DNA of 64,000 nucleotides from Candidatus Eiseniibacteriota bacterium (GTDB lineage: Bacteria; Eisenbacteria; RBG-16-71-46): assembly GCA_044222065.1 (NCBI GenBank), contig JBGAOA010000005.1, positions 1 to 64,000 of the forward strand, given 5' to 3'. Below, piece after piece: positions 24,493 to 51,205 of this stretch. The notes beneath the pieces were generated by a model. That model was not told the origin of the DNA and made no database searches. It saw only the letters and a list, made by a program, of their open reading frames with translations. Each line of letters begins with the position of its first letter. Within the stretch, counting starts at the first letter, position 1. The position numbers and the translations under genes were made by a program.

Positions 24493-24569
<77 letters not shown>

Positions 24570-35190: not shown

Positions 35191-36537
35191 TCAATGCCGG
35201 CGAATTCCGTACTTGCGCATCTTGCGGTGCAGGTTCGTCCGATCGATGCCGAGCCCCGCGGCGGCCTGCGTGACGTTCCAGTTCGCGCTCTCGAGCGCGC
35301 GGCGGATGGCGTCGGCCTCGCGACGGCCGATCTCGCCGCGCAACCCCACGCCGTCCGACTCCCCGGCGTCGTCCACGAGCCACGGCTCGAGGTCCACGTC
35401 GCGGAGCGTATCCCCTTCGACGAGGATCGCGGCGCGCTCCATCAGGTTTCGCAGTTCGCGCACGTTGCCCGGCCACGAGTAGGCCGTGAGAGCCTCGACG
35501 GCCTCGGGCGAAAGCGACTGCGGCGCGCGGCCCTCGGCGGCGGCGAAGCGCGCGAGGAAGTGCGCGGCGAGGAGCGGTATGTCCGTCCGTCGCTCACGCA
35601 GCGGAGGAACGACGAGCGGGAGCACGTTTAGCCGGTAGTAGAGGTCCTGCCGGAAGTCGCCGGCTTCGACCGCCCCGGGCAGGTCCTTGTTCGTTGCCGC
35701 GATCACGCGGACGTCGGCGCGCCCGGTCCGCGTGCCGCCGACACGCTCCACTTCTCCGGTCTCGATCGCACGCAGCAGCTTCGCCTGCGCTTCGAGCGAC
35801 AGGTCGCCGATCTCGTCGAGGAACAACGTGCCGCCGTCGGCGAGCTCGAGCCGTCCCTTCTTGCTCTGCATCGCGCCCGTGAACGCGCCCTTCTCGTATC
35901 CGAACAGCTCGCTCTCGACGAGGTCGCGCGGAATCGCGGCGCAATTGAGCTTCACGAACGGGCCCGAGGCGCGCTTGGAGAGTGCGTGGATCGCCTCGGC
36001 GACGAGTTCCTTGCCCGCCCCGTTTTCGCCCGTGATGAGCACGCGGCCCTGCGACGGCGCAACGCGGCGGATGCTCTCGACGAGCGCCTGCAGCGCCGGG
36101 CTGCGGCCGAGGAGTCCCGCGAGCGCGTCGTCGGTCACTTTCGGCTCCGGGGCGTTCGCGACGCCGGCGCGGCGGAGCCGGCCGAGCCGCGTGCACTCCG
36201 CGAGTGCGGCGAGCAGGCGTTCGGGATCCACGGGCTTCGAGATGAAGTCGAACGCGCCGAGCTGCCCCGCCTGGAACGCGTTGTCGAGCGTCGTCTCGCC
36301 GCTCACCATGAGCACGGCCGCCTGCGGCGCGGCATCGCGCAGCCGTCGGAGAACCTCGAGGCCCGACGGGCCGGGCATGCGGATGTCGAGCAGGATCACC
36401 TCCGGTGCGGCCTCGTCCGCCACTTTGAGCGCCTGCTCGCCGTCCGCTGCCTCGCGAACGGAATGGCCCTCGTCCGCGAGCACGCCGCGCAGCATCTTCC
36501 GGATCGCGGGATCGTCGTCCACCACGAGCACGTCCAT
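35191..36537 (-). CDS. Sigma54-dependent response regulator (NtrC/NtrX family)
   Basis: Receiver domain VLVVDDD..LLDIRMP, then GENGAGKE, ESELFGYEKGAFTGA, WPGNVREL and a Fis-type HTH. Confidence 0.93.
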   Translation of the reverse strand: MDVLVVDDDPAIRKMLRGVLADEGHSVREAADGEQALKVADEAAPEVILLDIRMPGPSGLEVLRRLRDAAPQAAVLMVSGETTLDNAFQAGQLGAFDFISKPVDPERLLAALAECTRLGRLRRAGVANAPEPKVTDDALAGLLGRSPALQALVESIRRVAPSQGRVLITGENGAGKELVAEAIHALSKRASGPFVKLNCAAIPRDLVESELFGYEKGAFTGAMQSKKGRLELADGGTLFLDEIGDLSLEAQAKLLRAIETGEVERVGGTRTGRADVRVIAATNKDLPGAVEAGDFRQDLYYRLNVLPLVVPPLRERRTDIPLLAAHFLARFAAAEGRAPQSLSPEAVEALTAYSWPGNVRELRNLMERAAILVEGDTLRDVDLEPWLVDDAGESDGVGLRGEIGRREADAIRRALESANWNVTQAAAGLGIDRTNLHRKMRKYGIRRH

Positions 36538-36551
36538 GCGGTTCCTCTCGT

Positions 36552-38081
36552 TCAGCCGCGCTGCGACTCGCCGTCGCCCGCGGAAAGGAGCGGCACGACG
36601 AGGCGCGCGCGCGCGCCTCCGCCGCTGCGATTCTCCAGCGTCACCTCGCCGCCGTGCCGGTTCGCGATGTCGCGCACGAGCGGAAGTCCGAGTCCGCTGC
36701 CGCGGCGCTTCGTGCTGACGTACGCCTCGAACAGCCGTTCGGCGGAACCTTCGGGCAATCCGGGCCCGCGGTCGAGCACTTCGACGGCGGCGCGCCGTCC
36801 CTCGGCGCGCGCGACGATCTCGATCTCGCCGCCCTCGGGGCTGGCCTCGCAGGCGTTGAGCGTCAGATTGTGCAGCGCCCGCGACAGCAGCATCGGATCG
36901 CCGCGCACCGGGAGCGCCGTGTCGGCCGCCACCGAGACCTTCACCGCGTGCCCGTCGTGGAGCGCCGCCACCCGGCGAGTGACCTCGGCGAGGTCCACGG
37001 TCTCGAAGCGCGGCTCGGGCAGCCGCGCGTACTGCGCGAACTGCTCCGCGAGCCGCGACAGGTGTTCGATCTCGTCCACGATCGCCTCGAGGCTCTCGCG
37101 CACCGCGACGCGCTCCGACTCGGGCACGGCATCGAGCCGGCGCTGCAGCCGGTGGAGCGAGAGCCGCATCGGCGTGAGCGGGTTCTTGATCTCGTGCGCC
37201 AGGTGGCGCGCGACTTCCCGCCACGCGGCTTCGCGTTCGGCCTGCTGCAACGACGCGCGCGCGCTCTCGAGGCTCGCCGTCATCTGGTTGAACGCGCCTC
37301 CGAGCGTACGCAACTCGCGCGCGCCGCGCGGCTGCACGCGCACCGCGAGGTCGCCGCCGGCGACGCGCGCGATCGCCGCGGACAGTTCTCCGAGCGGGCG
37401 CGACATGCCGCTCGCGAGCGTGCGTGCGAGCGCCAGCGAGACGATGCCGAGCGACACGACGAGCGCGCCGACGAGAAGCCACACGTAGCGACGCTGAAGC
37501 GGAACGAGCACGCCGAGCTGCCGGTAGCGATTGACGCCTTCGCCCACCGCGTCGAGCTTGCCGAAGTACTCCGGCTCGACCCAGAGGCCGGTCACGATCG
37601 CCCGCTCGGGGCCGAGGGGACTCGCCGCCGCGAGCGCGCCCGCGCCCGACTGGAGTTCGACGCCGTGAGTCAGTCCCGCGGGAAGGTCCGAACCGAGGTC
37701 GATCGCGTCCTCGGGTGCGTCCGGAACGGCCGCGAAGTGCTCGATTCGCACCCAGCGTCCCTCGCGCAGCTCGTAGAGCTGAACGAAGCTCAGGCCCGAC
37801 GCGCGCAGCTCGGCGCGCAATCCCGCTCGTTCGGCGTCCGAGAGCGTCCGTCCGGGCCAGCGCTCGGCCCACGACTCCGCGTGCGACAGCGCGATCGCGA
37901 GCAGCCGCCCGTGGTCGCCGCGGGCGACGTCGAGCGCGGATTCGAGCGCGCTCTGCACGCCCGGGCGGTACCAGCGCTGCGCCGATCGGTCGAGCTGCTG
38001 CAGCGTGAACGCGGTGAACAGTGCGATCGGAACCAGCGCGACCGCGAACAGCGCGAGCACCAGCCGCGAGCGGAGCGTCAC
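36552..38081 (-). CDS. HAMP sensor histidine kinase (NtrY-like)
   Basis: Two TM segments and a HAMP domain; AWREVARHLAHEIKNPLTP, DRGPG and GSGLGL. Confidence 0.92.
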   Translation of the reverse strand: MTLRSRLVLALFAVALVPIALFTAFTLQQLDRSAQRWYRPGVQSALESALDVARGDHGRLLAIALSHAESWAERWPGRTLSDAERAGLRAELRASGLSFVQLYELREGRWVRIEHFAAVPDAPEDAIDLGSDLPAGLTHGVELQSGAGALAAASPLGPERAIVTGLWVEPEYFGKLDAVGEGVNRYRQLGVLVPLQRRYVWLLVGALVVSLGIVSLALARTLASGMSRPLGELSAAIARVAGGDLAVRVQPRGARELRTLGGAFNQMTASLESARASLQQAEREAAWREVARHLAHEIKNPLTPMRLSLHRLQRRLDAVPESERVAVRESLEAIVDEIEHLSRLAEQFAQYARLPEPRFETVDLAEVTRRVAALHDGHAVKVSVAADTALPVRGDPMLLSRALHNLTLNACEASPEGGEIEIVARAEGRRAAVEVLDRGPGLPEGSAERLFEAYVSTKRRGSGLGLPLVRDIANRHGGEVTLENRSGGGARARLVVPLLSAGDGESQRG

Positions 38082-38100
38082 GTCCGTCGGATCGGGTCCA

Positions 38101-39174
38101 TCAGGCCCCCGGTCCCAGTCCTCCGAGCTGACCGCACGCCGCCCAGATCTCGCCGCCCATCGTCTGGCGAACGGTCACCGCGGGCGCCTGCGGGTAGAGC
38201 CGGTGCGCGAACGCCTCGACCGCCTCGGGTGTCGGTCGCTGGTAGGGAAGCCCGGGCACCGGGTTGTACGGGATCAGGTTGATCTTGCTCGGCAGCGCGC
38301 GCGCCATCGCGGCGAGCCGGTCCGCGTCTTCGGGGCCGTCGTTCACGCCGCCGAGCAGCGTGTACTCGAGCGTCACGCGGCGCCCCGTTCGCTGGCCGTA
38401 GCGTTTCGCCGCGGCGAGCAATTCCGCGATCGGCCAGCGCTTGTTGATCGGCACGAGCTCGTCGCGCAACGCGTCGGTCGTCGCGTGCAGCGAGATCGCG
38501 AGTCCCACCGGCAGTCCCGCGTCCGCCAGCTCTTCCATCTGAGGCACGAGTCCGCTCGTCGAGACCGTGATGCGGCGAGCGCCGAGGTTGAGTCCCTCGT
38601 CGTCGTGGAGGATGCGAATGGACTCGACCACGTTGCGCGTGTTCGCGAGCGGCTCTCCCATGCCCATGAAGACGATGTTGAATCGGTCCGCTTCCTCGCC
38701 GGCGCGCTCGGCCATGGTGAGGATCTGGGCGATGATTTCCTCGGGCCACAGGTTGCGCTTGAGGCCCATCAATCCCGTCGCGCAGAACGAGCACTTGAGC
38801 GCGCAACCCACCTGGCTCGAGACGCAGAACGTGAGGCCACGATCGGTGCGCATCGAGACGCACTCGACGAGGGAACCGTCCGAAAGTTCGAGCACGAACT
38901 TCACGGTCGCGCCGTCCGGGGTCGCGCGCGCCGTCTCGATGCGCGGCAGCGCGAGGTCGAGGATCGAGTGGAAGTCTCGCCGGAGAGCCGCCGGGAGATT
39001 CGTCATGCTCGCGGGATCGCGATGACGCTTGCGATAGACCCACGAGAACAACTGGGCGGCGCGATAGCCCGGAAAACCGCGCTGCCCGAGGTGTTCGGCG
39101 AGGGCGGCGCGAGAGAGGCCGAAGAAGTTCGGCGCACGCCCGGATGGGCTGGCGGAAGGGCTCGCGTGGGTCAT
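38101..39174 (-). CDS. rlmN: 23S rRNA m2A2503 methyltransferase RlmN
   Basis: CVSSQVGCALKCSFCATG, FMGMGEP, NLIPYN and AACGQL. Confidence 0.96.
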   Translation of the reverse strand: MTHASPSASPSGRAPNFFGLSRAALAEHLGQRGFPGYRAAQLFSWVYRKRHRDPASMTNLPAALRRDFHSILDLALPRIETARATPDGATVKFVLELSDGSLVECVSMRTDRGLTFCVSSQVGCALKCSFCATGLMGLKRNLWPEEIIAQILTMAERAGEEADRFNIVFMGMGEPLANTRNVVESIRILHDDEGLNLGARRITVSTSGLVPQMEELADAGLPVGLAISLHATTDALRDELVPINKRWPIAELLAAAKRYGQRTGRRVTLEYTLLGGVNDGPEDADRLAAMARALPSKINLIPYNPVPGLPYQRPTPEAVEAFAHRLYPQAPAVTVRQTMGGEIWAACGQLGGLGPGA

Positions 39175-39259
39175 AGGGGCTCGGGTCTCGGCCGCGCGAA
39201 AGCTAACAGAGCAAATTTGTTGCGGTCAACGCGCGCATGATGATATGCATCGCCGTGCA

Positions 39260-39874
39260 ATGAACTCGAAAGCGCTGGATCGTCGTGCCCGGCTGGCGTG
39301 CGTGCTCGAGGCGTCGCGATTCAACATCGTCTCGCGACTCTCGGCGACTCGGGGACTTTCCGTGAGCGCGCTCGCGCGCGAGATCGGCCTTTCGCAGTCC
39401 TGCACCACTCGACATCTCCAGGTGCTTCAGCGCCACGGACTCGTCCGTGGTCGACGGGTCGGCAAGGAAGTCCGCTTCGAACTCGTCGGTGATCGCCCCG
39501 AGGTCGCACTGCTCGCGAGCTGGTTCGACGTCGAGGGGGACGTGCCGGGACCTGGCGATGCGGAACAGCGGACTGTCCGCGTGAACCCGCGCGGGCGCAC
39601 GCCGACCCGTTCGTCCAACTCGCGCCGCGCGGGTGCCGAGGCCAGCCCGCGATCGAGCGCGGCGCTGGCGCGCGACGGGTCCCGCGACGATAATGCCGCG
39701 CTTCCGCCGGACACCCGCAGCGATGCCGAAGGCCAGACTCGTGTTCGTTCGGAGCCCGGGGATCCCGAGGGAGTCGAGTCCGCGAACTCGGAGCCCGCGG
39801 GACTCGGAGCGCCCACCTCGGAAGGCTCCGCTTCGCACCGCCGTTCCGACGACATCGAGGATTTCCTCCTGTGA
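39260..39874 (+). CDS. ArsR/SmtB-family HTH regulator with a long disordered C-terminal tail
   Basis: SRFNIV..LSVSALAREIGLSQSCTTRHLQVLQRHGLV..RVGKEVRF. The start may be 39245 instead. Confidence 0.75.
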   Translation: MNSKALDRRARLACVLEASRFNIVSRLSATRGLSVSALAREIGLSQSCTTRHLQVLQRHGLVRGRRVGKEVRFELVGDRPEVALLASWFDVEGDVPGPGDAEQRTVRVNPRGRTPTRSSNSRRAGAEASPRSSAALARDGSRDDNAALPPDTRSDAEGQTRVRSEPGDPEGVESANSEPAGLGAPTSEGSASHRRSDDIEDFLL

Positions 39875-40863
39875 GTGCCGCCAGACCTATGCGTGTTGGT
39901 GCAATTGATCTCGGATCGAACTCGATCCGACTCCTGGTCGCCGACGTCACTCCCGGTGCCGATGGCGTGCTCGCGCTCGAAACGGTGGCCCGAGCGGGTG
40001 AGCCGTGCCGACTCGCCCGAGGCCTCGACCGTACCGGGCGCATCGACGAGGCCGCCGGGGAGCGGGCCGCCGTACTCGCGGTGGAGTTCCTGCGCCGGGC
40101 GCGATCGCTCGGTGCGCGACACGTCGTCTTCGGAGCCACGGCTGCGCTGCGGTCCAGCGACAACGGCGCCGAAATCGCACGCCTGCTCGAGGCGCGGTGC
40201 GGCATTCCGGTCCGGATTCTCAGCGGTGAGGACGAAGCGCGGCTGGTCTACCGCGCGGTTGTGTCGCGGCTCGATGCGCCGGTTCGCCGCTCGCCATGCG
40301 TCGTTTTCGACATCGGCGGTGGCAGCACAGAGGTTGTCAGCGGGCTCGGTGCGGAGCCGGGGCGCTGGGCGAGCCTGCCCATCGGCGCAGTGAACTTGAC
40401 CGAGAAGTTCCTGCACTCCGACCCGGCCCATTCGCAGGAGATCGCCGATCTCGAGGCGGCCGTGGATTCCCAAATCATGCATTGGTGTGCATACATGCCG
40501 CCGACGACGCCCGTGCTCGCCGGGGTCGGCGGCACCGTCACCTTGCTGGCCGGACTGGATCGCGGGCTTTCGAGCCACGAGCCCAATCTTCTCGAGGGCC
40601 ACCGAATCCCGATTGCGCGACTGGAGTCCTGGGTGTCGGAACTGGTTGCGGCCCCCCACGGCGTTCGGCTCTCGATGCCGCTGATGGGGGAGGGACGGGC
40701 GGACATCGTCGTGGCGGGGGCGCTGGTCGTTCGTGCGCTCGCGCGCCGATTTCCCTCCGAGGCCCTCGTTTGTTCGACTCAGGGACTCCGATATGCGCTC
40801 GCGCGAGTGGCGGCGGAGGAAGCGATCGCGAGCGACCCCGGGGATCTCGAACAAAGTCGTTGA
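39871..40863 (+). CDS. ppx: Ppx/GppA exopolyphosphatase family protein
   Basis: AIDLGSNSIRLLV, ATAALR, ILSGEDEA, DIGGGSTE, GRADIVVAG and GLR. Confidence 0.9.
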   Translation: MSAARPMRVGAIDLGSNSIRLLVADVTPGADGVLALETVARAGEPCRLARGLDRTGRIDEAAGERAAVLAVEFLRRARSLGARHVVFGATAALRSSDNGAEIARLLEARCGIPVRILSGEDEARLVYRAVVSRLDAPVRRSPCVVFDIGGGSTEVVSGLGAEPGRWASLPIGAVNLTEKFLHSDPAHSQEIADLEAAVDSQIMHWCAYMPPTTPVLAGVGGTVTLLAGLDRGLSSHEPNLLEGHRIPIARLESWVSELVAAPHGVRLSMPLMGEGRADIVVAGALVVRALARRFPSEALVCSTQGLRYALARVAAEEAIASDPGDLEQSR

Positions 40864-40999
40864 CCCTCTCCTCGAGCCGGGCGGATACTTCGGGCGGCAA
40901 AGCAGGCCACAACCCCTCTTTTCCAGTGCGGCCACGGGTGCTGTCCCGACGGCCGTTTCGTGTATCCGTCGTTCAATGCCAGTGAAGGAGCAGTTCCGA

Positions 41000-41317
41000 A
41001 TGCAGAGGTTGCGCAGCCAGCTCCTGATCGCACTGGTCCTCGCGGTCCTCAGCATTCCGACCGTGACCGGGATCGCGCACGCTCGAAAGAGGGTTCTTTC
41101 GGACGGCGGCGCGTCTACGTCACTGCCGGGAAGACAGTCCGGTGCGTTCTCGGGTGAACCGGACGGTCACACGGCCCCGCCGCAGAGCACTGCGCCGCGG
41201 CTGGGTGCTGGAGTCGCGGGTGGCGAAACGCAGCTGATGGTCGGCTCGAAGAGCCTCGGTCAGTGGTTTCGCTGGGCCGGCACGGTTTGGAAGGTGAGGT
41301 ACCTGGCGCGTCACTAG
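41000..41317 (+). CDS. Small secreted protein (105 aa), candidate signalling-peptide precursor
   Basis: ATG 41000 follows an AAGGAG SD. Signal peptide MQRLRSQLLIALVLAVLSIPTVTGIAHA, a Gly/Ser/Pro-rich middle with SGEPDG, and a Trp-rich amphipathic C-terminus. Confidence 0.68.
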   Translation: MQRLRSQLLIALVLAVLSIPTVTGIAHARKRVLSDGGASTSLPGRQSGAFSGEPDGHTAPPQSTAPRLGAGVAGGETQLMVGSKSLGQWFRWAGTVWKVRYLARH

Positions 41318-41422
41318 TGGTGCAACTCGATCGCGCCACCGCGCCAGTCTGTTCGCCAGACCACTCGGAACGAACCGCCGAGTGGTCCAACCGGGTTCGT
41401 AGCACAACGAGGGTTCGTCACA

Positions 41423-44400
41423 GTGCAGAGAGCGATCCCCCCCGATCTTTCTCGTGCTGACTCGCTCGCGCCGAATTCCGTTCGGCAGCACGAAGCGATC
41501 GGTGATCTGCATCTGGCCGCCGACCAATTCGCCGGCGCCGTGGAGGCCTACTCCGCGGCCCTCGCCGAACTGGGCGGCGAGCCGCGTTCGGAACGCGGCC
41601 GCCTGCTGCTCCGGCTCGCCGACGCTTCGATTCGCCGTTCCGACCTCGATCTGGCGCTGACCGCGCTCAACGAGGCTCGGGGCATCGCGCGTCAGTCGGG
41701 CGACCTCGCCCTGTCCGCACGCGCTTCCGCGTTCTTCGTGATGGTGCACCTCGAGCGCGGCAACTATCGACGAGCGCGCCGCTACGGCCTGTTCGCCTAT
41801 CGCGTGCTGCGTGGCTCCGACGATCACCGGACCGTCGGCCACGTCGAACTGCACCTCGGCGTGTGCGCCGAGATGCTCGGACGCCGGCCCGAGGCGATCG
41901 AGTGGCTGCAGAACGCCGCAGCGACCTTCCGGCGCATCGACGACGTCGAAGGTCTGGTTTGCGCGCTGAACGAACTCGGCATCGTCTACAAGAACATGCG
42001 CGAATGGCGTGAGGCGACTCGCTTCCTCGAACAGGCGCTGCGCCTCGACGAGCGCGCCGGGCTGTACGAGCGCATGCGGACGCACAATCAGAACCTCGGC
42101 CTGATTCGCTACCGTCTCGGCCAGTGGGATCTCGCGGAGGAGAACTTCCGTCAGTCGTTGCGCATCGCGCGCGAGACCGGGCACCAGGTTGGCGAAGCGA
42201 TCGCGCTCCTCGCCTTCGGCATGCTGTACCGCCGCCGCCGCCAGCTCGGGCGCGCCGCGGAGCACTACCGTTCGGCGCTCGAGATCGCGGCGCCGCTCGG
42301 CGCGTGGCGCGAGGTCGCGCTCGCGCGCGAGTTCCTCGCCGAGATCGAACTCGACCGCGGCAATGGCGCGGGTGCCATGGCGCTCCTAGAGCCCGCGCTC
42401 GAGGACGCGAACGCGCGTGCGCCGGAAGGCGACATGGCGATGGAACTGTCCATTCGCGTCGGCATGGCGCATCTCGCGAGCGGCCGCGCGGAGCCCGCGC
42501 AGCGTTACCTGCTGGCCGGCCTCGCACTGGCCGAGCAGCTCGGTGATCGCATCGAGTCCGCGATCGCTGAGCGCGCGCTCGGACGGCTCGAGGCGACGCG
42601 CGGCAACGCCGCCGCCTTCGAGACGCGCATTCGTTCGGCCGCCTCGTGCTTCGAGCAACTCGGTGAGACCTACGAACTCGCGCTCACGCTTGCGACCTGG
42701 GCCGAGGGCGCGTTCCTGCTGCCGACGAGCACACGCCTCAAGCTGCTGCTCGAACCGGTCGGCGACGCGGCCCGACGCGCGGCGACGCTGTTCCGCCAGC
42801 TCGGCATCCCATCGCTCGCCGCCGAGTGCTACCTGAACCTTTCGCGGCTCGAGTCCGAACGCGAACACTTCGATTTCGCGCTCGGTCTGCTGGAGCAGGC
42901 CGAGTCGTGGCTCGCAGAATCCGAGGATCCCGACGTCGCGGAGCGCGCGGAAGCGCTGCGGCGCGATCTCGAGCGCCAGTACGTCGCAGTCTCGCTCTCG
43001 ACCTGCAACGAATTCCGTGCGCTCGAAGACGCGAACCGGCTGTTCCGCGAGACCGCGGACATGGATGGTCTGCTGAACCAGGCGGTGCGGCTCGCCGTCG
43101 AACACGCCGGCGGTGACCGCGGATTCGTCGCGTTCACGAACGGCGGCGCGCGGCTCGACGTCGTCGCGCAGCACGGACTCGGACGCGAACGTGCGCGCCG
43201 CATCCTGCGCGTGCTCGAACAAGTCGGCGGCAGCCGGCTCGCTGAGAACGGTCCTCTGTTCTCGAGCCGAGTCACTGCCGATCCGCGGTTCTCGGTCTCG
43301 GTCGTGGACGCGCTCGATGGCGTCGGCTCGCTCGTCTGCGTCCCGCTCAACTTCCCATCGCAGTCGGTAGGACTCGTCTACGTGGATCGGCTCAACGACA
43401 GCCTGCTCGGCGCCTTCAAGCAGCGCGAGCTCAACCTGCTCGCCGTGCTCGCGAACAGCGCCGCGGTGGCGATCGTCGAAGCGCAGCGTTCACGCCTGCT
43501 CGAAGAGAATCGGCAGTTGCGTGATCGCCTCAAGCCGAGCCCCGGCATGGAGCGGGTGGTCTCTCAGTCCCGTGAGATCCAGAGCATCCTGCAGCTGCTG
43601 CAGAAGGTGAGCGACAGCCCGGCCACGGTGCTCTTCATGGGCGAGACTGGGACCGGCAAGGGGCTGCTCGCGCAGGTCGTGCACGAGAGCTCGGCGCGGC
43701 GCGACCGCCCCTTCATCCAGGTCAATTGCGCGGCGATCCCCGAGCACCTGCTCGAGAGCGAGCTGTTCGGCTACGTGCAGGGCGCCTTCACCGGCGCGAT
43801 GCGCGACAAGACCGGGCTTTTCGAGGAGGCCGAAGGCGGGACGTTGTTCCTCGATGAGATCGAGAAGATTCCCGAGACCGTGCAGGCCAAGCTTCTCCAC
43901 GTGCTGGATCGCAGCGAGATTCGCCCCGTCGGAGCGGCGCGCAGTCGACGCGTGGACACGCGAGTGATCTGCGCGACGGGATGCGATCTCCGCGATCGGA
44001 TCCGGGAGCGCCGGTTCCTCGAGGACCTGTACTACCGGCTGAACGACATCACGGTGCGCGTGCCTCCGCTTCGCGAACGCCGCGAGGACATCCCGCTCCT
44101 CGCGCAGTACTTCCTCACGAGCTTCTCGCGCCAGATGGATCGTTCGATTGCGGGCTTCTCCGCGCCCGTGATGCAGGCGCTGCTCGAGCACACGTGGCCC
44201 GGCAACGTGCGTGAGCTCGAGAAAACCGTGAAGCGCATGGTGGTGCTCGCGGATGACGGCGCGACGCTGGACGTGGATCTTCTTCCGCCCGACCTCCGGG
44301 AGAGCACGCGGCCGGCGAGCACGGAGCTTCGGGTGGTGAGCCGCACGCTCAAGTCGAACGTCGTGAATCTCGAGCGGCAGCTGATCGCCGAGGCGCTCGA

Positions 44401-44509
44401 AAGAACCCGCTGGAACAAGACGCGGGCCGCGCGTGAACTCGGGCTCAGCTATCCGACCCTGCTCGCCAAGATCCGGAGCTTCCAACTCGAGCGGCAGCGC
44501 GGCGGCTGA
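41423..44509 (+). CDS. TPR-GAF-AAA+ sigma54 enhancer-binding protein
   Basis: About 500 aa of TPR-like helices, then a GAF domain (SLVCVPL..VGLVYVDR..LANSAAVAI), GETGTGKG, ESELFGYVQGAFTGA, WPGNVREL and a C-terminal HTH. Confidence 0.92.
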   Translation: MQRAIPPDLSRADSLAPNSVRQHEAIGDLHLAADQFAGAVEAYSAALAELGGEPRSERGRLLLRLADASIRRSDLDLALTALNEARGIARQSGDLALSARASAFFVMVHLERGNYRRARRYGLFAYRVLRGSDDHRTVGHVELHLGVCAEMLGRRPEAIEWLQNAAATFRRIDDVEGLVCALNELGIVYKNMREWREATRFLEQALRLDERAGLYERMRTHNQNLGLIRYRLGQWDLAEENFRQSLRIARETGHQVGEAIALLAFGMLYRRRRQLGRAAEHYRSALEIAAPLGAWREVALAREFLAEIELDRGNGAGAMALLEPALEDANARAPEGDMAMELSIRVGMAHLASGRAEPAQRYLLAGLALAEQLGDRIESAIAERALGRLEATRGNAAAFETRIRSAASCFEQLGETYELALTLATWAEGAFLLPTSTRLKLLLEPVGDAARRAATLFRQLGIPSLAAECYLNLSRLESEREHFDFALGLLEQAESWLAESEDPDVAERAEALRRDLERQYVAVSLSTCNEFRALEDANRLFRETADMDGLLNQAVRLAVEHAGGDRGFVAFTNGGARLDVVAQHGLGRERARRILRVLEQVGGSRLAENGPLFSSRVTADPRFSVSVVDALDGVGSLVCVPLNFPSQSVGLVYVDRLNDSLLGAFKQRELNLLAVLANSAAVAIVEAQRSRLLEENRQLRDRLKPSPGMERVVSQSREIQSILQLLQKVSDSPATVLFMGETGTGKGLLAQVVHESSARRDRPFIQVNCAAIPEHLLESELFGYVQGAFTGAMRDKTGLFEEAEGGTLFLDEIEKIPETVQAKLLHVLDRSEIRPVGAARSRRVDTRVICATGCDLRDRIRERRFLEDLYYRLNDITVRVPPLRERREDIPLLAQYFLTSFSRQMDRSIAGFSAPVMQALLEHTWPGNVRELEKTVKRMVVLADDGATLDVDLLPPDLRESTRPASTELRVVSRTLKSNVVNLERQLIAEALERTRWNKTRAARELGLSYPTLLAKIRSFQLERQRGG

Positions 44510-44554
44510 CAAACAACTGAAGTCTCCGACTAGCAAGTCGCTTAATAGAAATCC

Positions 44555-44589
44555 CGAAGCCCCGCAGTCACTTAGGCTGCGGGGCTTCG
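44555..44589 (+). terminator. Strong hairpin after the activator gene
   Basis: CGAAGCCCCGCAGTC-ACTTA-GGCTGCGGGGCTTCG; it has no clear U-tract. Confidence 0.5.
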
Positions 44590-44718
44590 TCATGAAAGCG
44601 GCTTGAGGATTTCCGGTGCTTTCGTGGCTCGGAATCCTGCGCTTGTTGGATTTCGCCCATTCCAGTTAATAATTGATTAGCAAGCATTTAGGACATATTT
44701 GTGCGACGTCGCCGTTCA

Positions 44719-44734
44719 TGGCACGACGAGTGCC
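44719..44734 (+). promoter_or_regulatory. Sigma54 -24/-12 promoter (P1)
   Basis: TGGCACGACGAGTGCC, with GG(44720-21)-N10-GC(44732-33); preceded by an AT-rich tract. Confidence 0.75.
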
Positions 44735-44744
44735 TATACGTGTG

Positions 44745-45080
44745 CCTCGGAGGGGGGGGACCTCCACAAAATCCAGCAGAGCACCGCTGGAACACGATCT
44801 AGGCTAGCCGGCTCTGTAGGGCTCGGTCGAGGGTACGAGCCCCGTCATCCGACAACGTATCGAACCCTACGTCCGGCTAGCTTGGAGTGAATTCAACGGT
44901 CCGGGAAGTGGCGGGCCTGGGTGAATCGACGAAGTTCGGTCCCGGTTATCTTCGCGCGATCCCCGCTCTGCGGCTTCCCGGCTTTTCTTGCAGTCGAGAC
45001 ACCGGCTTCACGCGATACAGGCCAGCACTGGGGGATGTCCAGGCTTGTGTCTGCGACCGAGGCCGGTGTCTCACTTCTTG
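44745..45080 (+). ncRNA. Candidate structured non-coding RNA with three tandem long hairpins
   Basis: Starts at the predicted +1 of P1. Hairpins at 44798-44886, 44901-44981 and 44996-45072 contain G-U pairs that form only on the + strand. No credible ORF. Confidence 0.55.
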
Positions 45081-45229
45081 GGCCCCGGCGGCTCCCCGAC
45101 CGTGCACTGTGGCGCCCCTTGCACACCTGCGTCGCCGGCGCTGCGCGGCACCCCCTGAATCGCGGCGCAAACCGCTCAAAGCGGCCCATTTTCACTGATC
45201 TTTCCCGGCCCCGAGCCCCCGCATCTCGC

Positions 45230-45245
45230 TGGCACGTGGGTTGCC
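45230..45245 (+). promoter_or_regulatory. Sigma54 -24/-12 promoter (P2)
   Basis: TGGCACGTGGGTTGCC matches TGGCACG-N4-TTGC; it lies about 37 nt upstream of ATG 45282. Confidence 0.82.
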
Positions 45246-45281
45246 CTCCAAGCGATCGTCCATTTCACGCGAGGAGGACCC

Positions 45282-46115
45282 ATGAAAGCTCCAGTCCTGC
45301 TGATCGTCGCCGCCGCGCTGCTCGCGGGCTGTGATGACGATCATGTCTCGGCCCCCCGCGACGTCACCCCTCCGGCCGCGCCGCGGGGCGTCTACAGCGT
45401 GACCGGCGATCAGTCCGTGCGGGTCTCGTGGCTCGCGAACACCGAAATCGATGTGGCTGGCTATCGGATCTACCAGGGTCCTTGCGCCACCGGTCCTTCG
45501 TGCCCCTACGACCTCGTCGGCTCGACCACCGCCACGACCTACACCGTCACCGGACTTGCGAACGGCAGCACCCGCTACTTCGCGGTTGCGGCGTTCGACC
45601 GCGCGGGAAATGAGAGTCCGCTGTCCTACGAAGACGTCTTCGACACGCCGCGCCCTGCCGGATTCGGCGCGACGCTGGGTGATGCGGTGGACGAGCCTGC
45701 GATCAGCGGCTGGGACTTCTCCGCCGCCTCGCGCCGGGCGTGGGACCACGCGGAGACCGACGTGTACTTCAGCTACTCCGGCGGCGTCTTCCGAATGATC
45801 GCGCCCTTCACGGATACGGACATCCAGGACGCGGGATATGCGGCGAGCCTCGATGCCGTGGACTTCGCTCCCACGAGCGGCTGGTCGCCGACGGGTACGG
45901 TCGAACTGATCCCCGGACACAACTACATCGTGTGGACGTACGACGACCATTACGCCAAGTTCCGCGTCACCGCGCTCGGGCCGTCGCCCGCCCGCGTGAC
46001 GTTCGACTGGGCCTACCAGACCGCCACGAGCAACCGTGAGCTTCGGGCGCGGCGCGCACCTCACGAGGGTCCGCGCGTGCGTCGCGAGCTCGCGCAGCTC
46101 ACGGGCATCCAATGA
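45282..46115 (+). CDS. Lipoprotein with a fibronectin type III domain and a second (HmuY-like?) beta domain
   Basis: SD GAGGAGG and lipobox LLAGC. FN3 signature PPAAP..VSW..AGYRIY..GL.NG..YFAV.AFD..GNES; C-terminal HYAKFRVT..VTFDWAYQ. Confidence 0.78.
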   Translation: MKAPVLLIVAAALLAGCDDDHVSAPRDVTPPAAPRGVYSVTGDQSVRVSWLANTEIDVAGYRIYQGPCATGPSCPYDLVGSTTATTYTVTGLANGSTRYFAVAAFDRAGNESPLSYEDVFDTPRPAGFGATLGDAVDEPAISGWDFSAASRRAWDHAETDVYFSYSGGVFRMIAPFTDTDIQDAGYAASLDAVDFAPTSGWSPTGTVELIPGHNYIVWTYDDHYAKFRVTALGPSPARVTFDWAYQTATSNRELRARRAPHEGPRVRRELAQLTGIQ

Positions 46116-46291
46116 ACCGGGCGCTCCGCCCCGCCGCGGACGCGACGCGGCCCACGGGCACTGAAGGAACCACCGGGCGCGGCACGACTGCCCGCCGCGC
46201 CGGACGCTCCAACCCGCGGGAACTCCGCGGGTCGGTGCAAGGTAGATTGGGCGGTCCGTCCGCGAGGCTCGACCTCGCGAGGAGGCATGCC

Positions 46292-47701
46292 ATGAATCGC
46301 ACCGTCGTGCTGACCGCGCTCGGCCTCGCCCTCGCGGCCGCCGCCGCGGCTCCGGCCGGGGCGCGTGGCCTCGGCGTCGAGGTCTGGACCGACCGCGGCA
46401 ACGACGCCGTCTACCAGCCGGGGGAGCGCTTGCAGGTGAAAGCGCGCACCTCGGATGACGCCTACCTGCTCGTCTACGAAATCGATGCCGAGGGCGAGAT
46501 CCACGTGCTCTTCCCGTTCCGAGGACACCGCGACATGGTCCCGGGACACACGACGCTGCGCGTGCCCTCCGACGACGACGACGTGGACCTCGTCGTTCAG
46601 GAGCCGGTCGGTGAGTCGTTCCTCGTGGCGATCGCTTCGGAGAACGGTTTCCGCGACCTGCCGTGGTACCTGCGTCCGTACGACCCGGTCGGCGAGGCCA
46701 ATGGCTTCGTCGGGCAGACCGAAGACGAAGAAGGTGTCACGAGCGACGGTCGCATCGTGGGCGACCCGTTCGTCGCGATGGAGCGCATCCGGCGTCGCGT
46801 GCTGCTCGATCCGGACGATCGCTCGTCCTTCGCGACCGACTACACCACGTACTTCGTGCACAACCAGGTCCGATACCCGCGCTATCTCTGCTACGACTGC
46901 CACCGGCCCGGCCGATGGGAGTGGTGGGACGGGTTCGACCCCTATTACACGAGCTGCTCCGTGTTCGACTTTCGGGTGAACTGGTCTTGGGCGTGGGGGC
47001 CGAGCTACTGGTTCGGCCGAGTTCCGTACTTCGTGTACGTCTATCGCCCCAGCTGCCCGCCGCGCTATCAGCACTGGGCGGGTTCGGGCACCTGGTACTC
47101 CTCGTGGGACGGCTGGCGCCATTGGAACGACTTGTGGGGCACGGGCACGCTCCGGCGCTACAAGTCCGCACCGCCGACGGCCTACGTTCCGCCGACCAAG
47201 TTCCGCACCTCCGAGCGGCTGGGTCCCGCGCGCCAGTTGCCTCCGGGCTTCGTTCAGGACAGTCCGTCTCGCCGGTCGTTCGACCGTGCGCTGCCCCCCC
47301 GTGGCGGTGTGGCGCGCCGCGACGATCGGCAGGAATCCAGCGGGGAGCCGCGTCGCGAACGCGCCGCGGATCGCGGCTGGGGACGCATCTTCGATCGCAC
47401 CGAGGTCCGCCGCACGCCGGCCGCTCGCGCGCCGCAGGACGAGGGTTCGTCTCGTCCCGCGCCGTCGACCGACTACGGCCGGGGACGCGAGCGCGATTCG
47501 GGTGATTCGCGGCCGGCGCCGTCGTACAATCCGCCGCCTCAGAAGCAAGAGCCGCGGCACGAGCCCGCACGCGAGCCGGCGCGCGAGCCCGCGCGCGAAC
47601 AGCGCCACGAGCGGGCGCCCGATCCGCAGCCGCAAAAGGCATCGCCGCCACCCCCGCCGCCCAAGTCCGATGGCGGAGGCGGGCGAGGAGGCAAGAGATA
47701 A
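46292..47701 (+). CDS. Exported DUF4384-like protein with a CxxCH motif, a Trp/Tyr-rich segment and a disordered tail
   Basis: SD GGAGG and a signal peptide; VEVWTDRG..VYQPGE..YLLVYEIDAEGEIHVLFP; CYDCH; EPAR repeats. Confidence 0.72.
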   Translation: MNRTVVLTALGLALAAAAAAPAGARGLGVEVWTDRGNDAVYQPGERLQVKARTSDDAYLLVYEIDAEGEIHVLFPFRGHRDMVPGHTTLRVPSDDDDVDLVVQEPVGESFLVAIASENGFRDLPWYLRPYDPVGEANGFVGQTEDEEGVTSDGRIVGDPFVAMERIRRRVLLDPDDRSSFATDYTTYFVHNQVRYPRYLCYDCHRPGRWEWWDGFDPYYTSCSVFDFRVNWSWAWGPSYWFGRVPYFVYVYRPSCPPRYQHWAGSGTWYSSWDGWRHWNDLWGTGTLRRYKSAPPTAYVPPTKFRTSERLGPARQLPPGFVQDSPSRRSFDRALPPRGGVARRDDRQESSGEPRRERAADRGWGRIFDRTEVRRTPAARAPQDEGSSRPAPSTDYGRGRERDSGDSRPAPSYNPPPQKQEPRHEPAREPAREPAREQRHERAPDPQPQKASPPPPPPKSDGGGGRGGKR

Positions 47702-47775
47702 TCGTTCGAAGCGCGTGATGCGCGCGGGCGGCGCCGGAGGACCCGGCGCCGTTCCGTCATTCCGATCGAGGGTGC

Positions 47776-48693
47776 ATGAACGTCCGAAACGTCGCGCTGT
47801 TCGCATCACTCACCCTCGTCGCGCTCGCGGGCGTCGCGTCCGCTGGCACGCCGGGGTTCGCCTTCCTCGAGACGCCGAGCGGCGCCCGCGCGTCCGCGAC
47901 CGGCGGCGCAGGCGTGACGCTCGCCGAAGGCGCCGAGGCCGCGTTCTGGAATCCCGCCGCGCTCGATCGCGCGGAACGCCTCGAGATCGCGGGAAGTCAC
48001 TTCGAGATGTATCAGGCGCTGCGTCACGAGGACTTCGTGGTCGCGGGTCCGGCGTTCGGCGGCGGGATCGCGGCGTCGTTCCGCGCGCTCTATTCCGAGC
48101 CGATCGAGGAGCGTGACGATCTCGGCAACCTCGTCGGCACGTTCGGAGCGCACGACCTCGAGTTCGCGCTCGGCTACGGGGCGCGCGTCGCGAACGAGGT
48201 GCGCGTCGGACTCACCGGCGCGCTCGTACGCGAGCGCATCGCGGACAAGGCCGCGCAGACCTGGGCCGTGCACACCGGTCTCTCTTGGGACCCGGCACGC
48301 TGGCCGGGGCTGCGCCTCGCGGTCGCGGGGCAGAACCTCGGCCCGGCCGGCGCGTTCGCGCTCGATGGCGTGCGTGGCGAGGACGTCGCGCTACCGGCGG
48401 CCCTGCAGGGTGGAGCCTCGTACGCGCGCACCGTCGCGACGAGCTGGACGCTGCGCGGGGCGCTCGAAACCCGGCTCACGCGCGGCCGAACGGGGATCGG
48501 CATCGTCGGCGCCGAGCTCTCGAATCCCGCGGGGCTCGCGGCGCGCGCCGGCGTGCGGCTGAACGACGACGTTTCGTCGCTCGCGTTCGGCGTCGGCTAC
48601 CGCGTGTCGTCGCTGCGCCTCGACTACGCCTACGTTCCTTCGCGACTCGACCTCGAGGACACGCACCGGCTGTCCTTCGCCGCACACTTCTGA
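47776..48693 (+). CDS. PorV/PorQ-like (FadL-fold) outer-membrane protein
   Basis: Signal peptide, FLETPSGARASATGGA, FWNPAAL and LDYAY..DTHRLSFAAHF. Confidence 0.8.
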   Translation: MNVRNVALFASLTLVALAGVASAGTPGFAFLETPSGARASATGGAGVTLAEGAEAAFWNPAALDRAERLEIAGSHFEMYQALRHEDFVVAGPAFGGGIAASFRALYSEPIEERDDLGNLVGTFGAHDLEFALGYGARVANEVRVGLTGALVRERIADKAAQTWAVHTGLSWDPARWPGLRLAVAGQNLGPAGAFALDGVRGEDVALPAALQGGASYARTVATSWTLRGALETRLTRGRTGIGIVGAELSNPAGLAARAGVRLNDDVSSLAFGVGYRVSSLRLDYAYVPSRLDLEDTHRLSFAAHF

Positions 48694-48702
48694 GGCCGTG
48701 CC

Positions 48703-49461
48703 TCACGCGCTCGCGCGATCGCGGTCTCCGTCCCGGGGCCAGCGCTCGAGCCTGAGTCCCGCAGGATCGAACACGACGTAGCTGAAGTGGCGGATCCAGT
48801 CTCCGAGCACGAAGAAGTCCCGGCCGCTTTCGCGCCGTTCATAGGCGTGGTGGAAGTGCCCAATCAGCACTGCGTCGTACCCCGCCTCGAAGCGCGGCTT
48901 CGCGACCACGTTCCACAGCTGATCGCCGTCGAGGGCGCGCTCGTCGCGCGATCCCCGCGACCAGCGCGACACGAGGGAGGCGAGCGGGAAGCCGATGTCC
49001 GGATGCAGCAGGCCGTAGGCCCCGATGCTCCACGGGTGCCGGATCACGCGACGCAGCACTTTGTAGCCGAGGTCGCCGCGCACGAGTCCGTCCCCGTGAT
49101 GGATCCACAGCCTGCGACCGTGGCGCTCGATCGTCAGGGCCCCGTCACGAGTGACGATTCCGAGTTCCTCGCTCAGGAACCGGCCCAACCAAAAGTCGTG
49201 GTTGCCGTTCAAATACGTGATCCGAATCCCTGCCTCCCGCAGCTGCCGCAGGCGCGACAACGTGCCGAAGTGCTGACGCGGGATCGCAGAGCGGTACTCG
49301 AACCAGAAGTCGAACAGGTCGCCGACGATCACCAGCTCGTCGGCGCGTCCCGGGAGGGAGGCGAGAAACGCGTGCAGCCTCGCAGAGCGCTCGGATTCGA
49401 CGTTCCGAGACGCAGCGCCGAGGTGCGCATCGGACAAGAAGTACAGCGCGCCGCCGGACAT
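48703..49461 (-). CDS. lpxH: UDP-2,3-diacylglucosamine diphosphatase (LpxH-like)
   Basis: FLSDAHLG, GDLFDFW, GNHDFW, HGDG, GHFH and LGDW. Confidence 0.85.
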   Translation of the reverse strand: MSGGALYFLSDAHLGAASRNVESERSARLHAFLASLPGRADELVIVGDLFDFWFEYRSAIPRQHFGTLSRLRQLREAGIRITYLNGNHDFWLGRFLSEELGIVTRDGALTIERHGRRLWIHHGDGLVRGDLGYKVLRRVIRHPWSIGAYGLLHPDIGFPLASLVSRWSRGSRDERALDGDQLWNVVAKPRFEAGYDAVLIGHFHHAYERRESGRDFFVLGDWIRHFSYVVFDPAGLRLERWPRDGDRDRASA

Positions 49462-49705
49462 GGGCGCGCAGTGTAGCAACCGGGGCTCGCGCGCCCCAAC
49501 GCCGGGCGCGGTGTCCGGAGGTCCGAGCGCGGTCGGCAGCGCTTCGGTCCGCTCGCGCAGGATGTTTTTGCGGCTCTGTGACAGCCCGCGGACTCCCGCC
49601 GCTAACCTCGTCGCACTTCTTCGCCGATCGTTCACGGGCGGCCCGTCTTCGCCGCCGCATCGTCCTCGGACGCCACGTCGTCCGAAACCGGAGGTAAGTC
49701 ACTCC

Positions 49706-51205
49706 ATGTTCGGTCATCGAGAGCCCGTCACCCGTCCTCGCTCGTACTATGCCGGCGCCTTCGCGCTGCTGATCGTCGGCGTCGTCGTGGGTCTCGGCCT
49801 CAGCGCCGGTCTGCGCCTGCAGCCCCAGCCCCAGGCCCAGCTCCAGCTCGCGGCCTCGTCGTCCGCCCTCGCCGGCGGACCCACGAGCAGCCCGTTCGTC
49901 GCGGTCGTGGACCGGGCGCTTCCGGCGGTCGTGTTCATCGAGACCCGGAAGCGCGTCGGCAGCTCGTCGGACGATCCGCAGGACGACTTCTTCCGCCGCT
50001 TCTTCAACGACTCGCCGCGGCGCCAGCAGGTTCGTCCCTCGTCCGGCTCGGGCTTCATCATCGACAAGGACGGCCGCATCCTCACGAACAACCACGTCGT
50101 GCGCGACGCGGAAGAGATCACGGTCACGCTGAACGACAAGCGCGAGTTCAAGGCGAAGGTGATCGGCACCGATCCCGAGACCGACGTCGCGGTGATCAAG
50201 GTCGAGGGCGACAACCTGCCCGTGCTGCCGCTCGGCGACTCCGACCGCCTGCGGGTCGGCGACTGGGCGATCGCGATGGGCAATCCGCTCGGCGAACTGC
50301 GCGGCTCGGTGACGGTCGGCATCGTGAGCGCTCAGGGCCGCACGAACCTGAACATCTACGGCGGCACTCCGAGCTTCCAGGACTTCATCCAGACCGACGC
50401 GTCCATCAACTTCGGAAACTCCGGCGGCCCGCTCGTCAACATCAGCGGCGAGGCGATCGGCATCAATACCGCGATCAACACGAGCGGGCAGGGCATCGGC
50501 TTCGCGATCCCGATCAACCTCGCGCGCCACGTCGCGGAGCAGATCATCGCCCACGGCGAAGTGAAGCGCGCGTGGATCGGAGTGCAGCTCGCCGAGCTCA
50601 CTCCCGAGATCGCCGACGGCTTCGGCATCAAGGGCAACCAGGGCGTCGTGATCTCCGAGGTGCTCAAGAACGAGCCGGCCGAGCGCGCCGGCCTGCACCG
50701 CGGGGACGTGATCGTCGAGCTGAACGGGCAGCCCGTCACCGAGCTGCAGAAGTTCCGCCTCAAGGTCGCCGATACTCCGGTGGGCTCCAAGATCAACCTC
50801 GTCGTGCTGCGGGACGGCAGGCGCGTTCCGATCACCGTCACGCTCTCGCCGCGACCGACCGACCAGGCGTCGCTGCGCGGCGGCCGCGGCGACGGCGGCG
50901 ACGACGCTCCCGACAGCGAGCGCCTCGCCGGCCTGCGCGTCCGCAGCCTCAACGACAGCGAGCGGAGCAACGCCGACCTCAAGAGCGGCGTCATGGTGAC
51001 GGACGTGAGCGAAGGCAGCTCGGGCGAAGAGGCCGGTCTGCAGGCGAACGACATCGTCGAAGAGGTGAACGGCAAGGCGGTCAGCACGCCGGCCGAGTTC
51101 TCGCAGGCGTTCAGCGAGGCGAAAAAGGCGAACAAGCGGCACGCCGTGCTGCTCGTGCGCCGCGGCGACGTGACGAACTTCGTGCCCGTGAAGCTCGGGG
51201 AGTAG
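49706..51205 (+). CDS. degP: DegP/HtrA serine endoprotease with two PDZ domains
   Basis: SGSGFII, TNNHVV, TDVAVIK and IQTDASINFGNSGGPL. Confidence 0.93.
   Translation: MFGHREPVTRPRSYYAGAFALLIVGVVVGLGLSAGLRLQPQPQAQLQLAASSSALAGGPTSSPFVAVVDRALPAVVFIETRKRVGSSSDDPQDDFFRRFFNDSPRRQQVRPSSGSGFIIDKDGRILTNNHVVRDAEEITVTLNDKREFKAKVIGTDPETDVAVIKVEGDNLPVLPLGDSDRLRVGDWAIAMGNPLGELRGSVTVGIVSAQGRTNLNIYGGTPSFQDFIQTDASINFGNSGGPLVNISGEAIGINTAINTSGQGIGFAIPINLARHVAEQIIAHGEVKRAWIGVQLAELTPEIADGFGIKGNQGVVISEVLKNEPAERAGLHRGDVIVELNGQPVTELQKFRLKVADTPVGSKINLVVLRDGRRVPITVTLSPRPTDQASLRGGRGDGGDDAPDSERLAGLRVRSLNDSERSNADLKSGVMVTDVSEGSSGEEAGLQANDIVEEVNGKAVSTPAEFSQAFSEAKKANKRHAVLLVRRGDVTNFVPVKLGE

Follow-up and report, generated by a model that had tools for sequence, protein, structure and literature searches.

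The window analysed here, the initial 64 kb of contig C7 in genome G000, a Candidatus Eiseniibacteriota bacterium, carries on its forward strand a cassette in which the gene of a small exported protein precedes that of a sigma-54 enhancer-binding protein with tetratricopeptide repeat (TPR) and GAF domains (activator A), followed by the gene of a structured non-coding RNA (RNA-A) and by an operon of exported proteins, each behind its own -24/-12 promoter (P1 and P2, respectively). As a whole, this arrangement is best explained as a conserved signalling cassette running from a peptide through the TPR-GAF sigma-54 activator to RNA-A, a reading to which we assign a probability of about 0.5; that it represents a real, phylum-wide and uncatalogued regulatory cassette is highly probable in view of its conserved linkage and its RNA gene. 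Across Eisenbacteria, the small exported protein is followed in unchanged order by the TPR-GAF sigma-54 activator, the two -24/-12 boxes and the downstream operon. A search of the literature, which took in the top 25 of 81 papers on this group and combinations with sigma54 but not subscription papers and supplements, found no paper on the cassette. The records of close relatives of activator A are mostly labelled Candidatus Eisenbacteria; matches to it reach E 1e-115 or better in 36/36 sampled genomes of the same family, and some match is present in all 61 genomes searched. The core comparison comprises 45 loci of activator A relatives. The initial annotation of the window had proposed a peptide-responsive sigma-54 circuit and a check of its linkage in homologous loci; there, the small open reading frame (ORF), both promoters and the RNA travel with the activator. 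That annotation lacked the paralogous cassettes and the RNA complementarity described below, which lie outside the window.

The small exported protein (41000..41317, + strand; 105 aa), a candidate signal precursor, is made of a signal peptide, a low-complexity linker holding a G-E-P-D core at residues 52-55 and a basic C-terminal tail rich in W, L and R; its hydrophobic N-terminus (Kyte-Doolittle 19-residue maximum of 2.44) agrees with the secreted protein first annotated at this position. The protein belongs to no Pfam or NCBIfam family and gives no usable Atlas feature match, and its homologs are so divergent that tblastn detects them in only 4/45 loci. Wherever upstream DNA is present, the activator is preceded by an ORF of this kind (~105 aa; signal peptide, G[ED]PD core, basic tail rich in W, L and R), and in 51 aligned sequences G52 and D55 are invariant and P54 is kept in at least 90%. 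A wider linkage survey took in 123 TPR-activator loci that represent every paralog type in the class, and upstream DNA sufficed in 117; a signal-peptide-like ORF stands before the activator in 117/117, or in 116/117 once one wrong pick (locus L149) is removed, and the motif G[EDN]P[DE] is found in 101 of the 117 picked ORFs and a relaxed motif in 114. Because the ORF picker favours motif-bearing ORFs, a genome-wide motif count serves as the control: in G000, the motif occurs in 4/226 signal-peptide-like small-ORF starts, which correspond to three ORFs, and all three directly precede the three TPR sigma-54 activators of this genome, namely A in the window, B on contig C64 and C on contig C9. 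In type B, the core reads GDPD in 39/39 proteins, with a proline two places later in 38/39 (GDPDxP); in type A, it reads G[ED]PD, with that proline in 11/52. Outside the phylum, one metagenome scan with a distant activator as the query returned four weak loci, in none of which an in-house script picked out a motif-bearing small ORF. In cassette C (G000:C9:31800-34729, minus strand; locus L263), the small protein overlaps the start of the TPR activator; the DNA for the first 400 residues of that activator has a lower GC content than the remainder of the gene, and neither a sigma-54 box nor an RNA was found downstream.

Activator A (41423..44509, + strand; 1028 aa) contains TPR, GAF, Sigma54_activat, AAA lid and HTH_8 domains according to Pfam, in which no Response_reg (receiver) domain is detected; its GAFTGA, Walker A and Walker B motifs are intact and it has no membrane helix. 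These domains and motifs bear out the TPR-GAF-AAA+-HTH architecture initially proposed and, together with the RpoN encoded in G000, qualify the protein as a sigma-54 enhancer-binding protein, in a genome with 23 GAFTGA-like loops. Its TPR region is modelled as a superhelix with a predicted local distance difference test score of 91.8. The nearest solved folds of this model are peptide-binding TPR proteins, with LGN (Z 28.6; root-mean-square deviation (rmsd) 3.4, 312 aligned) ahead of Rap (Z 25.8; rmsd 5.5, 346 aligned) and NprR (Z 23.8; rmsd 4.8, 352 aligned), and in a sequence-profile search RapF comes at rank 60 (E 8e-9); such neighbours show a common architecture, not a function. In TPR proteins, the first helix of each repeat lines the groove; 17 of the 32 conserved polar positions in type A lie on this first helix, and the groove-side residues R151, N183, N184, K190, N224, R296, E303, E341 and R345 are common to types A and B. 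In our judgement, the small protein is rather likely to be the TPR ligand by one route or another. An unlikely alternative would have the small protein as a co-regulated output or a membrane-tethered accessory, with the activator sensing some other cue through its GAF or TPR domain as part of an ordinary unit of activator and small RNA (sRNA) like PxrR-Pxr or CbrB-CrcZ, the latter being a comparable activator-sRNA unit. TPR folds do bind many partners, the type A GAF domain could accept a small molecule, and the C-terminal tail of the small protein is basic and hydrophobic, with an amphipathicity only slightly above that of shuffles (68/114); however, throughout the class the ORF is found ahead of activators that have a GAF domain as well as of others that lack it, it retains only its four-residue core, this core is paralog-specific, and the groove residues common to both types match the common core.

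On the output side, P1 (44719..44733, + strand) and its 5' hairpin are present in 37/40 loci with enough downstream DNA, the box being visible by eye in the remaining three, and within the phylum the P1 box and 5' hairpin recur, with an almost constant distance between them, in 11 families, as counted with a pattern whose fixed G-run length missed most family f1 genomes (30/206 matched) and which gives spread, not frequency. Within the window, P1 (44719) and P2 (45230) are the sole TGGCAC-N6-TGC matches, with 0.47 expected; since 6/100 shuffles of the window reach two such matches, the window alone is weak evidence, and it is the conservation of P1, and of P2 in 36/36 loci with the fn3 gene, that upholds the two sigma-54 promoters first annotated. 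A palindrome, the putative upstream activating site of P1 (44530..44548; consensus CTATCAA-N5-TTGATAG), has its best match at -188 to -193 in 29/35 family loci and is the top-scoring site in G000 by a profile that includes this very site. Activator A would bind this palindrome at about -190 and drive P1, as the conservation of both sites suggests. Between palindrome and promoter lies an AT-rich spacer (44600..44718) with weakly conserved CAA..TT motifs; its bin 44600-44699 has 45% GC, compared with 55-83% for every other bin of 100 bases between 39000 and 50000, and corresponds to the AT-rich tract noticed at the outset; the spacer is possibly a DNA-bending region of the integration host factor type. 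A GC-rich hairpin without a U run follows the stop codon of the activator (window 44553-44592), of which relatives keep only a central ACTTAG. The second-best match to the palindrome (score 16.8; G000:C89:152950 and 152723, minus strand) has a sigma-54 box 245 bases downstream of it, ahead of a 254-aa ORF without assigned function, which is possibly a second target of activator A.

In RNA-A (44749..45080, + strand; ~330 nt, with inferred ends), a short 5' hairpin rich in G (44749-44765) and a small variable one are accompanied by the three long hairpins already recognised in the initial annotation (44798-44885, 44901-44981 and 44996-45072; z -2.7, 0/100 shuffles). An alignment of the P1-P2 interval from 37 sequences displays invariant blocks between indel-rich stretches; the consensus fold of 35 family sequences has 78 pairs, 27 of them double-changed in at least two sequences and 20 invariant, with G027 left out for want of the hairpin-3 loop and hairpin 2 too variable to be included. 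No Rfam family is matched by RNA-A at gathering score, and the sole Pxr match (20.6 bits for a cut-off of 80) lies upstream of P1. Contigs 100% identical to the window were found in 4/4 RNA runs from four studies (44760-45035, 44758-45044, 44752-45065 and 44777-45033), all within the predicted RNA-A; the loose end of the contig at 44752 is presumably sequencing adapter. RNA-A is best regarded as a multi-hairpin regulatory RNA with a structure supported by covariation and an expression weakly supported by these contigs, which hint weakly at a discrete transcript. The conserved loop of hairpin 3, CACUGGGGGAUG (45026..45037, + strand), is shared by the family and by several distant members of the class and constitutes a candidate mRNA-pairing seed or protein site. 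Other paralogous activators, at loci L124, L130, L131 and L133 (genomes G051, G037, G039 and G041), have sigma-54 boxes downstream of them together with hairpin RNAs with G-rich loops, which look unrelated and represent further RNA families.

In the proposed mechanism, a sigma-70 promoter would co-express the small protein, presumably exported through the Sec pathway, and the cytoplasmic activator to which it is linked; the TPR groove would bind the G[ED]PD segment as its cognate ligand, which would most likely be excised once the protein is exported and then returned by a peptide ATP-binding cassette (ABC) importer as in RRNPP systems. The odds that the small protein reaches the TPR domain by this particular route of export and re-import are close to even, perhaps a little short of it. 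The RRNPPA pairs of Firmicutes (Rap-Phr, NprR-NprX, PlcR-PapR and AimR-AimP; PMC9765709) offer the closest likeness on the input side: a small Sec-type precursor gene directly adjoins that of a cytoplasmic TPR regulator (here in 116/117 loci), the TPR superhelix is of similar fold, and G000 encodes peptide ABC binding proteins, in the form of four family-5 solute-binding proteins. In contrast to these pairs, the present cassette occurs in a two-membrane phylum, its output is a sigma-54 AAA+ domain with a C-terminal HTH, and its precursor of ~105 aa has a conserved core in mid-protein instead of the usual C-terminal pheromone. At the far end of the circuit, the 5' end of RNA-A would pair with the leader of its own cassette, in what is presumably a feedback loop: complementarity of at least 8 nt between RNA and own leader is present in 26/38 A and 33/39 B cassettes, versus 1/35 and 1/36 with the leader of the other cassette, and in B it is accompanied by matched changes in family f3 and in G004.

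Several observations speak against this signalling reading. Most RRNPP pheromones are C-terminal in their precursor (PMC9765709), whereas here the core lies a median of 53 (type A) or 59 (type B) residues before the C-terminus; the release of a mid-protein peptide would, therefore, need two cuts plus passage through the inner membrane. The fold matches of the TPR model are generic, with the eukaryotic LGN outranking Rap and NprR. The activator of the window has M151 and E184 where the family has R and N in the groove, and it sits on a long branch in the tree, and the complementarity of its leader to RNA-A is degenerate, reduced to 6 nt; with these two groove changes and this short match, the window's copy of the cassette may be atypical. 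The RNA evidence consists of assembled contigs, which carry no information on the ends or levels of a transcript.

One way of dispensing with re-import altogether is to view the small protein as an export monitor. Under Sec overload, unexported precursor would bind the TPR domain in the cytoplasm and the activator would make RNA-A, whose GGGGGA loops would pair with UCCCCC before exported-protein genes and retune the secretion load. TCCCCC, the complement of these loops, occurs before 26/554 signal-peptide genes of G000 versus 13/1740 others, and among 556 hexamers at -50 to -15 of matched leaders it ranks top (19/172 signal-peptide genes versus 5/303 others, p 1.3e-5), with a mean of 10 in shuffles, 0/200 of which reach 19, and no enrichment of ACCCCC or GCCCCC, on gene starts taken from a crude caller of our own. 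The 18 TCCCCC-leader genes scanned include six matches to the FlgD-type C-terminal domain (five over the cut-off), two subtilases and one TonB-dependent receptor. However, the hexamer is not kept in orthologs of three of these targets (1/27, 1/29 and 1/4, each time in G000 alone), it is found in 2/35, 0/32 and 0/20 orthologs of the three operon genes, and a genome-wide pattern count did not separate it from ACCCCC. Because TCCCCC is absent from the orthologs of the three tested targets, a secretion regulon of RNA-A is a lead only. Several paralogs with distinct cores in one genome also suit separate signals better than a single gauge. The export monitor appears improbable.

The sigma-54 box of cassette B is followed by a conserved non-coding region of ~410 nt (RNA-B; 38 loci aligned) that has no Rfam match, and the palindrome of this cassette, present in two copies, differs from that of A. 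In the assembly, activator B (G000:C64:47844-50245; locus L262) is split by a frameshift just past the GAFTGA loop, through either an assembly error or a broken copy; relatives have a single open frame of ~800-850 aa, and at G011:C6:891314 a second RNA-B copy adjoins a broken second copy of activator B. The tip of hairpin 1 of RNA-A (44831..44844, + strand) is a 14-nt perfect complement to RNA-B (G000:C64:50763-50776); a 13-mer of this complementary site occurs just twice in G000, once in RNA-B and once on the strand opposite to RNA-A. The chance of such a complementary word is 3.7e-6 per 450 nt, or ~1e-3 if any position of RNA-A is allowed. A perfect core of at least 11 nt is found in 58/70 family RNA-B copies. 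In the 58 genomes in which both sites could be read, with categories tallied by hand, 47 have a perfect core, three a matched insertion of one extra base in both RNAs (G008, G031 and G012, the pairing in G012 running through two G-U pairs), and eight an interrupted, weak or lost site. The net pairing energy after the opening of both sites is below -5 kcal/mol in 27/32 genomes and unfavourable in two; in G000 it is -15.5. Family f3 has a short RNA-B without the site, and there the tip of RNA-A is free to vary. In our judgement it is rather probable that RNA-A and RNA-B pair in the cell, in which case each circuit could titrate the other, as an sRNA and its sponge do.

The same comparison also yields points that count against such pairing. 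The three genomes with the matched insertion form one clade (support 100) and represent a single event; in 8/58 genomes, the B site is weakened and the A tip unchanged, and the five of these that are included in the tree all branch outside its main 26-row clade. The B site has an internal partner within RNA-B, a nested co-fold of full RNA-A and RNA-B, by a method that cannot model loop-loop pairing, did not form the duplex, and Hfq was not found in G000 (94% complete). Because the A tip stays fixed where B drifted, the data suggest that it has another partner and that B acts as a decoy; complements of the hairpin-1 tip are not enriched in the 5' regions of G000 (1 versus 2.3 expected). Elsewhere in RNA-B, a 20-nt block (G000:C64:50891-50910) looks single-stranded and is almost invariant in 69/89 genomes of the family, as well as in family f3. 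The CCCGGUC at its core reappears in loops of RNA-A and RNA-B alike, and complements of this motif are not enriched in the 5' regions of G000 either (63 versus 58 expected). The conserved loop GCACCUCCAUC of the second hairpin of RNA-B, which we take to resemble the anti-Shine-Dalgarno tail of 16S rRNA, has its complement at -6 to -14 of three genes, with 0.8 expected.

Loops of this kind raise the question as to whether the two RNAs are sponges for a protein of the CsrA/Rsm type, bound through GGGGA loops and the repeated CCCGGUC; the complementarity between A and B would then reflect a DNA or protein site that both have in common but in reversed orientation, instead of RNA-RNA pairing. CsrA is present in 55/61 genomes searched, CCCGGUC recurs in both RNAs as described, and hairpin 3 has a loop with a terminal GGA, enclosed by an ACA/UGU stem like that of the Csr consensus. 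Yet CsrA was not found in G050, G052 and G056 (94, 86 and 98% complete), all with the G-rich 5' hairpin, RNA-A has just two GGA-ending loops, and the changes in the B site of G012 retain G-U pairs, as predicted by RNA pairing; such a wholesale reinterpretation is very unlikely. Eisenbacterial CsrAs are, moreover, mostly predicted to be non-functional on a standard target (PMC13443453). A Csr-sponge role is possible but weak. The CsrA gene of G000 is located at C121:9151-9309 (locus L202).

Downstream of RNA-A, P2 (45230..45244, + strand) precedes three genes for exported or surface proteins, in keeping with the FN3 lipoprotein, CxxCH protein and PorV-like gene initially listed: an FN3-domain lipoprotein (45282..46115, + strand; PF00041) with the lipobox LLAGC in its sequence, an exported DUF4384 protein of 469 aa (46292..47701, + strand; PF14326) with a disordered tail and a conserved CxDCH motif found in the 31 loci listed, and a PorV/PorQ-family outer-membrane protein (47776..48693, + strand; NF033709, 111.4 bits for a cut-off of 90). 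A SprA match is also present in G000. The fn3 gene lies downstream of the activator in 34/34 loci of sufficient length, and all three genes do so in 25/25. A conserved element upstream of P2, TGT-N-GC-N8-CACA... (45108..45133, + strand), occurs in 23/33 family loci, is unlike the P1 site, is unique at high score in G000 and is putatively the site of another activator; the P1 palindrome has no match within -250 to -40 of P2. The initial annotation had placed both the non-coding RNA and the surface operon under activator A: its first half is supported by the conserved -190 palindrome of P1, and its second half is not, as the upstream elements of P1 and P2 differ. Given this third element and the lack of a P1-type site nearby, the FN3/DUF4384/PorV operon is predicted to be sigma-54-dependent but probably served by an activator other than A. 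It is doubtful that activator A drives the surface operon, even if it may act on P2 from 700 bp away.

A sigma-54 promoter for a non-coding RNA beside the gene of its activator, inferred here from conservation, is also what CbrB-CrcZ and the following two systems have in common. In Myxococcus xanthus, the gene of the sigma-54 activator PxrR lies upstream of the sigma-54-transcribed multi-stem RNA Pxr (PMC10217877); LuxO-Qrr is a comparator sigma-54 activator-sRNA unit in which Qrr also represses luxO (PMC9732341), a repression that resembles the complementarity to the own leader seen here. The activators of all three systems differ from activator A in being phosphorylated response regulators under the control of a kinase, since A has no receiver domain; RNA-A, at ~330 nt, falls in none of the Qrr, Pxr or CrcZ families of Rfam, and no Hfq was found in G000. 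The link between the two RNAs recalls QrrX, which sponges Qrr1-4 in Vibrio cholerae and needs Hfq and a LysR-type activator (PMC9732341), in that the sRNA output of a signalling circuit is bound by base-pairing to another regulatory RNA; in contrast to QrrX, both RNAs stem here from paralogous peptide-TPR-sigma-54 cassettes, and the complementary sites of A and B are two hairpin tips. The cassette, in our analysis, resembles RRNPPA systems on its input, PxrR-Pxr and LuxO-Qrr on its output and QrrX in its RNA-RNA link, and is a member of none of them because of its different host group, mid-protein core, lack of a receiver domain, lack of an Rfam family and the absence of a detectable Hfq.

The operon of the small protein and activator A starts with a sigma-70-type promoter, TTGACC-N18-GATACT (40860..40889, + strand), the sole sigma-70-like match in 39000-50000, whose -35 and -10 boxes are both kept across an alignment of 39 leaders; RNA-run contigs starting at 40907 and 40914 lend it weak support. 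The leader hairpin that the initial annotation had counted as part of the cassette does fold in silico (-44.2 kcal/mol), yet the 5' arm shares sequence with the -10 box of this conserved promoter and the hexamer of its 3' arm is present in only 1/39 leaders, and it was rejected as a regulatory RNA element. Further upstream (window 35191-40863) are genes for an NtrX-like response regulator, an NtrY-like kinase and rlmN (minus strand), followed by an ArsR-type regulator and ppx, the last two of which hold their place ahead of the cassette in most of the 45 loci compared. A tRNA gene lies at 24496-24569 of the window on the minus strand (Rfam RF00005).

If the signalling reading is true, cytoplasmic peptide sensing would reach beyond Firmicutes, sigma-54 activators would gain a new type of input in the form of a TPR-bound peptide, and the cassettes would constitute a case of two paralogous signalling units whose RNA outputs neutralise each other. 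Tests in a laboratory host are cheap, as the candidate ligands are short and have paralog-specific cores and the activating site at -190 is defined; the matched insertion in both RNAs provides a natural specificity control for RNA-RNA pairing. Taken further, and only tentatively, peptide signalling in Eisenbacteria may form a network of several channels, for which two-membrane bacteria offer no described parallel. Each channel would combine a peptide with a G[DE]PD core, a sigma-54 activator gated by its TPR domain and a long RNA with multiple seeds; A and B would be opposed through Hfq-independent loop-loop pairing, and the cell would compare two peptide signals at the RNA level to set its output of exported proteins.

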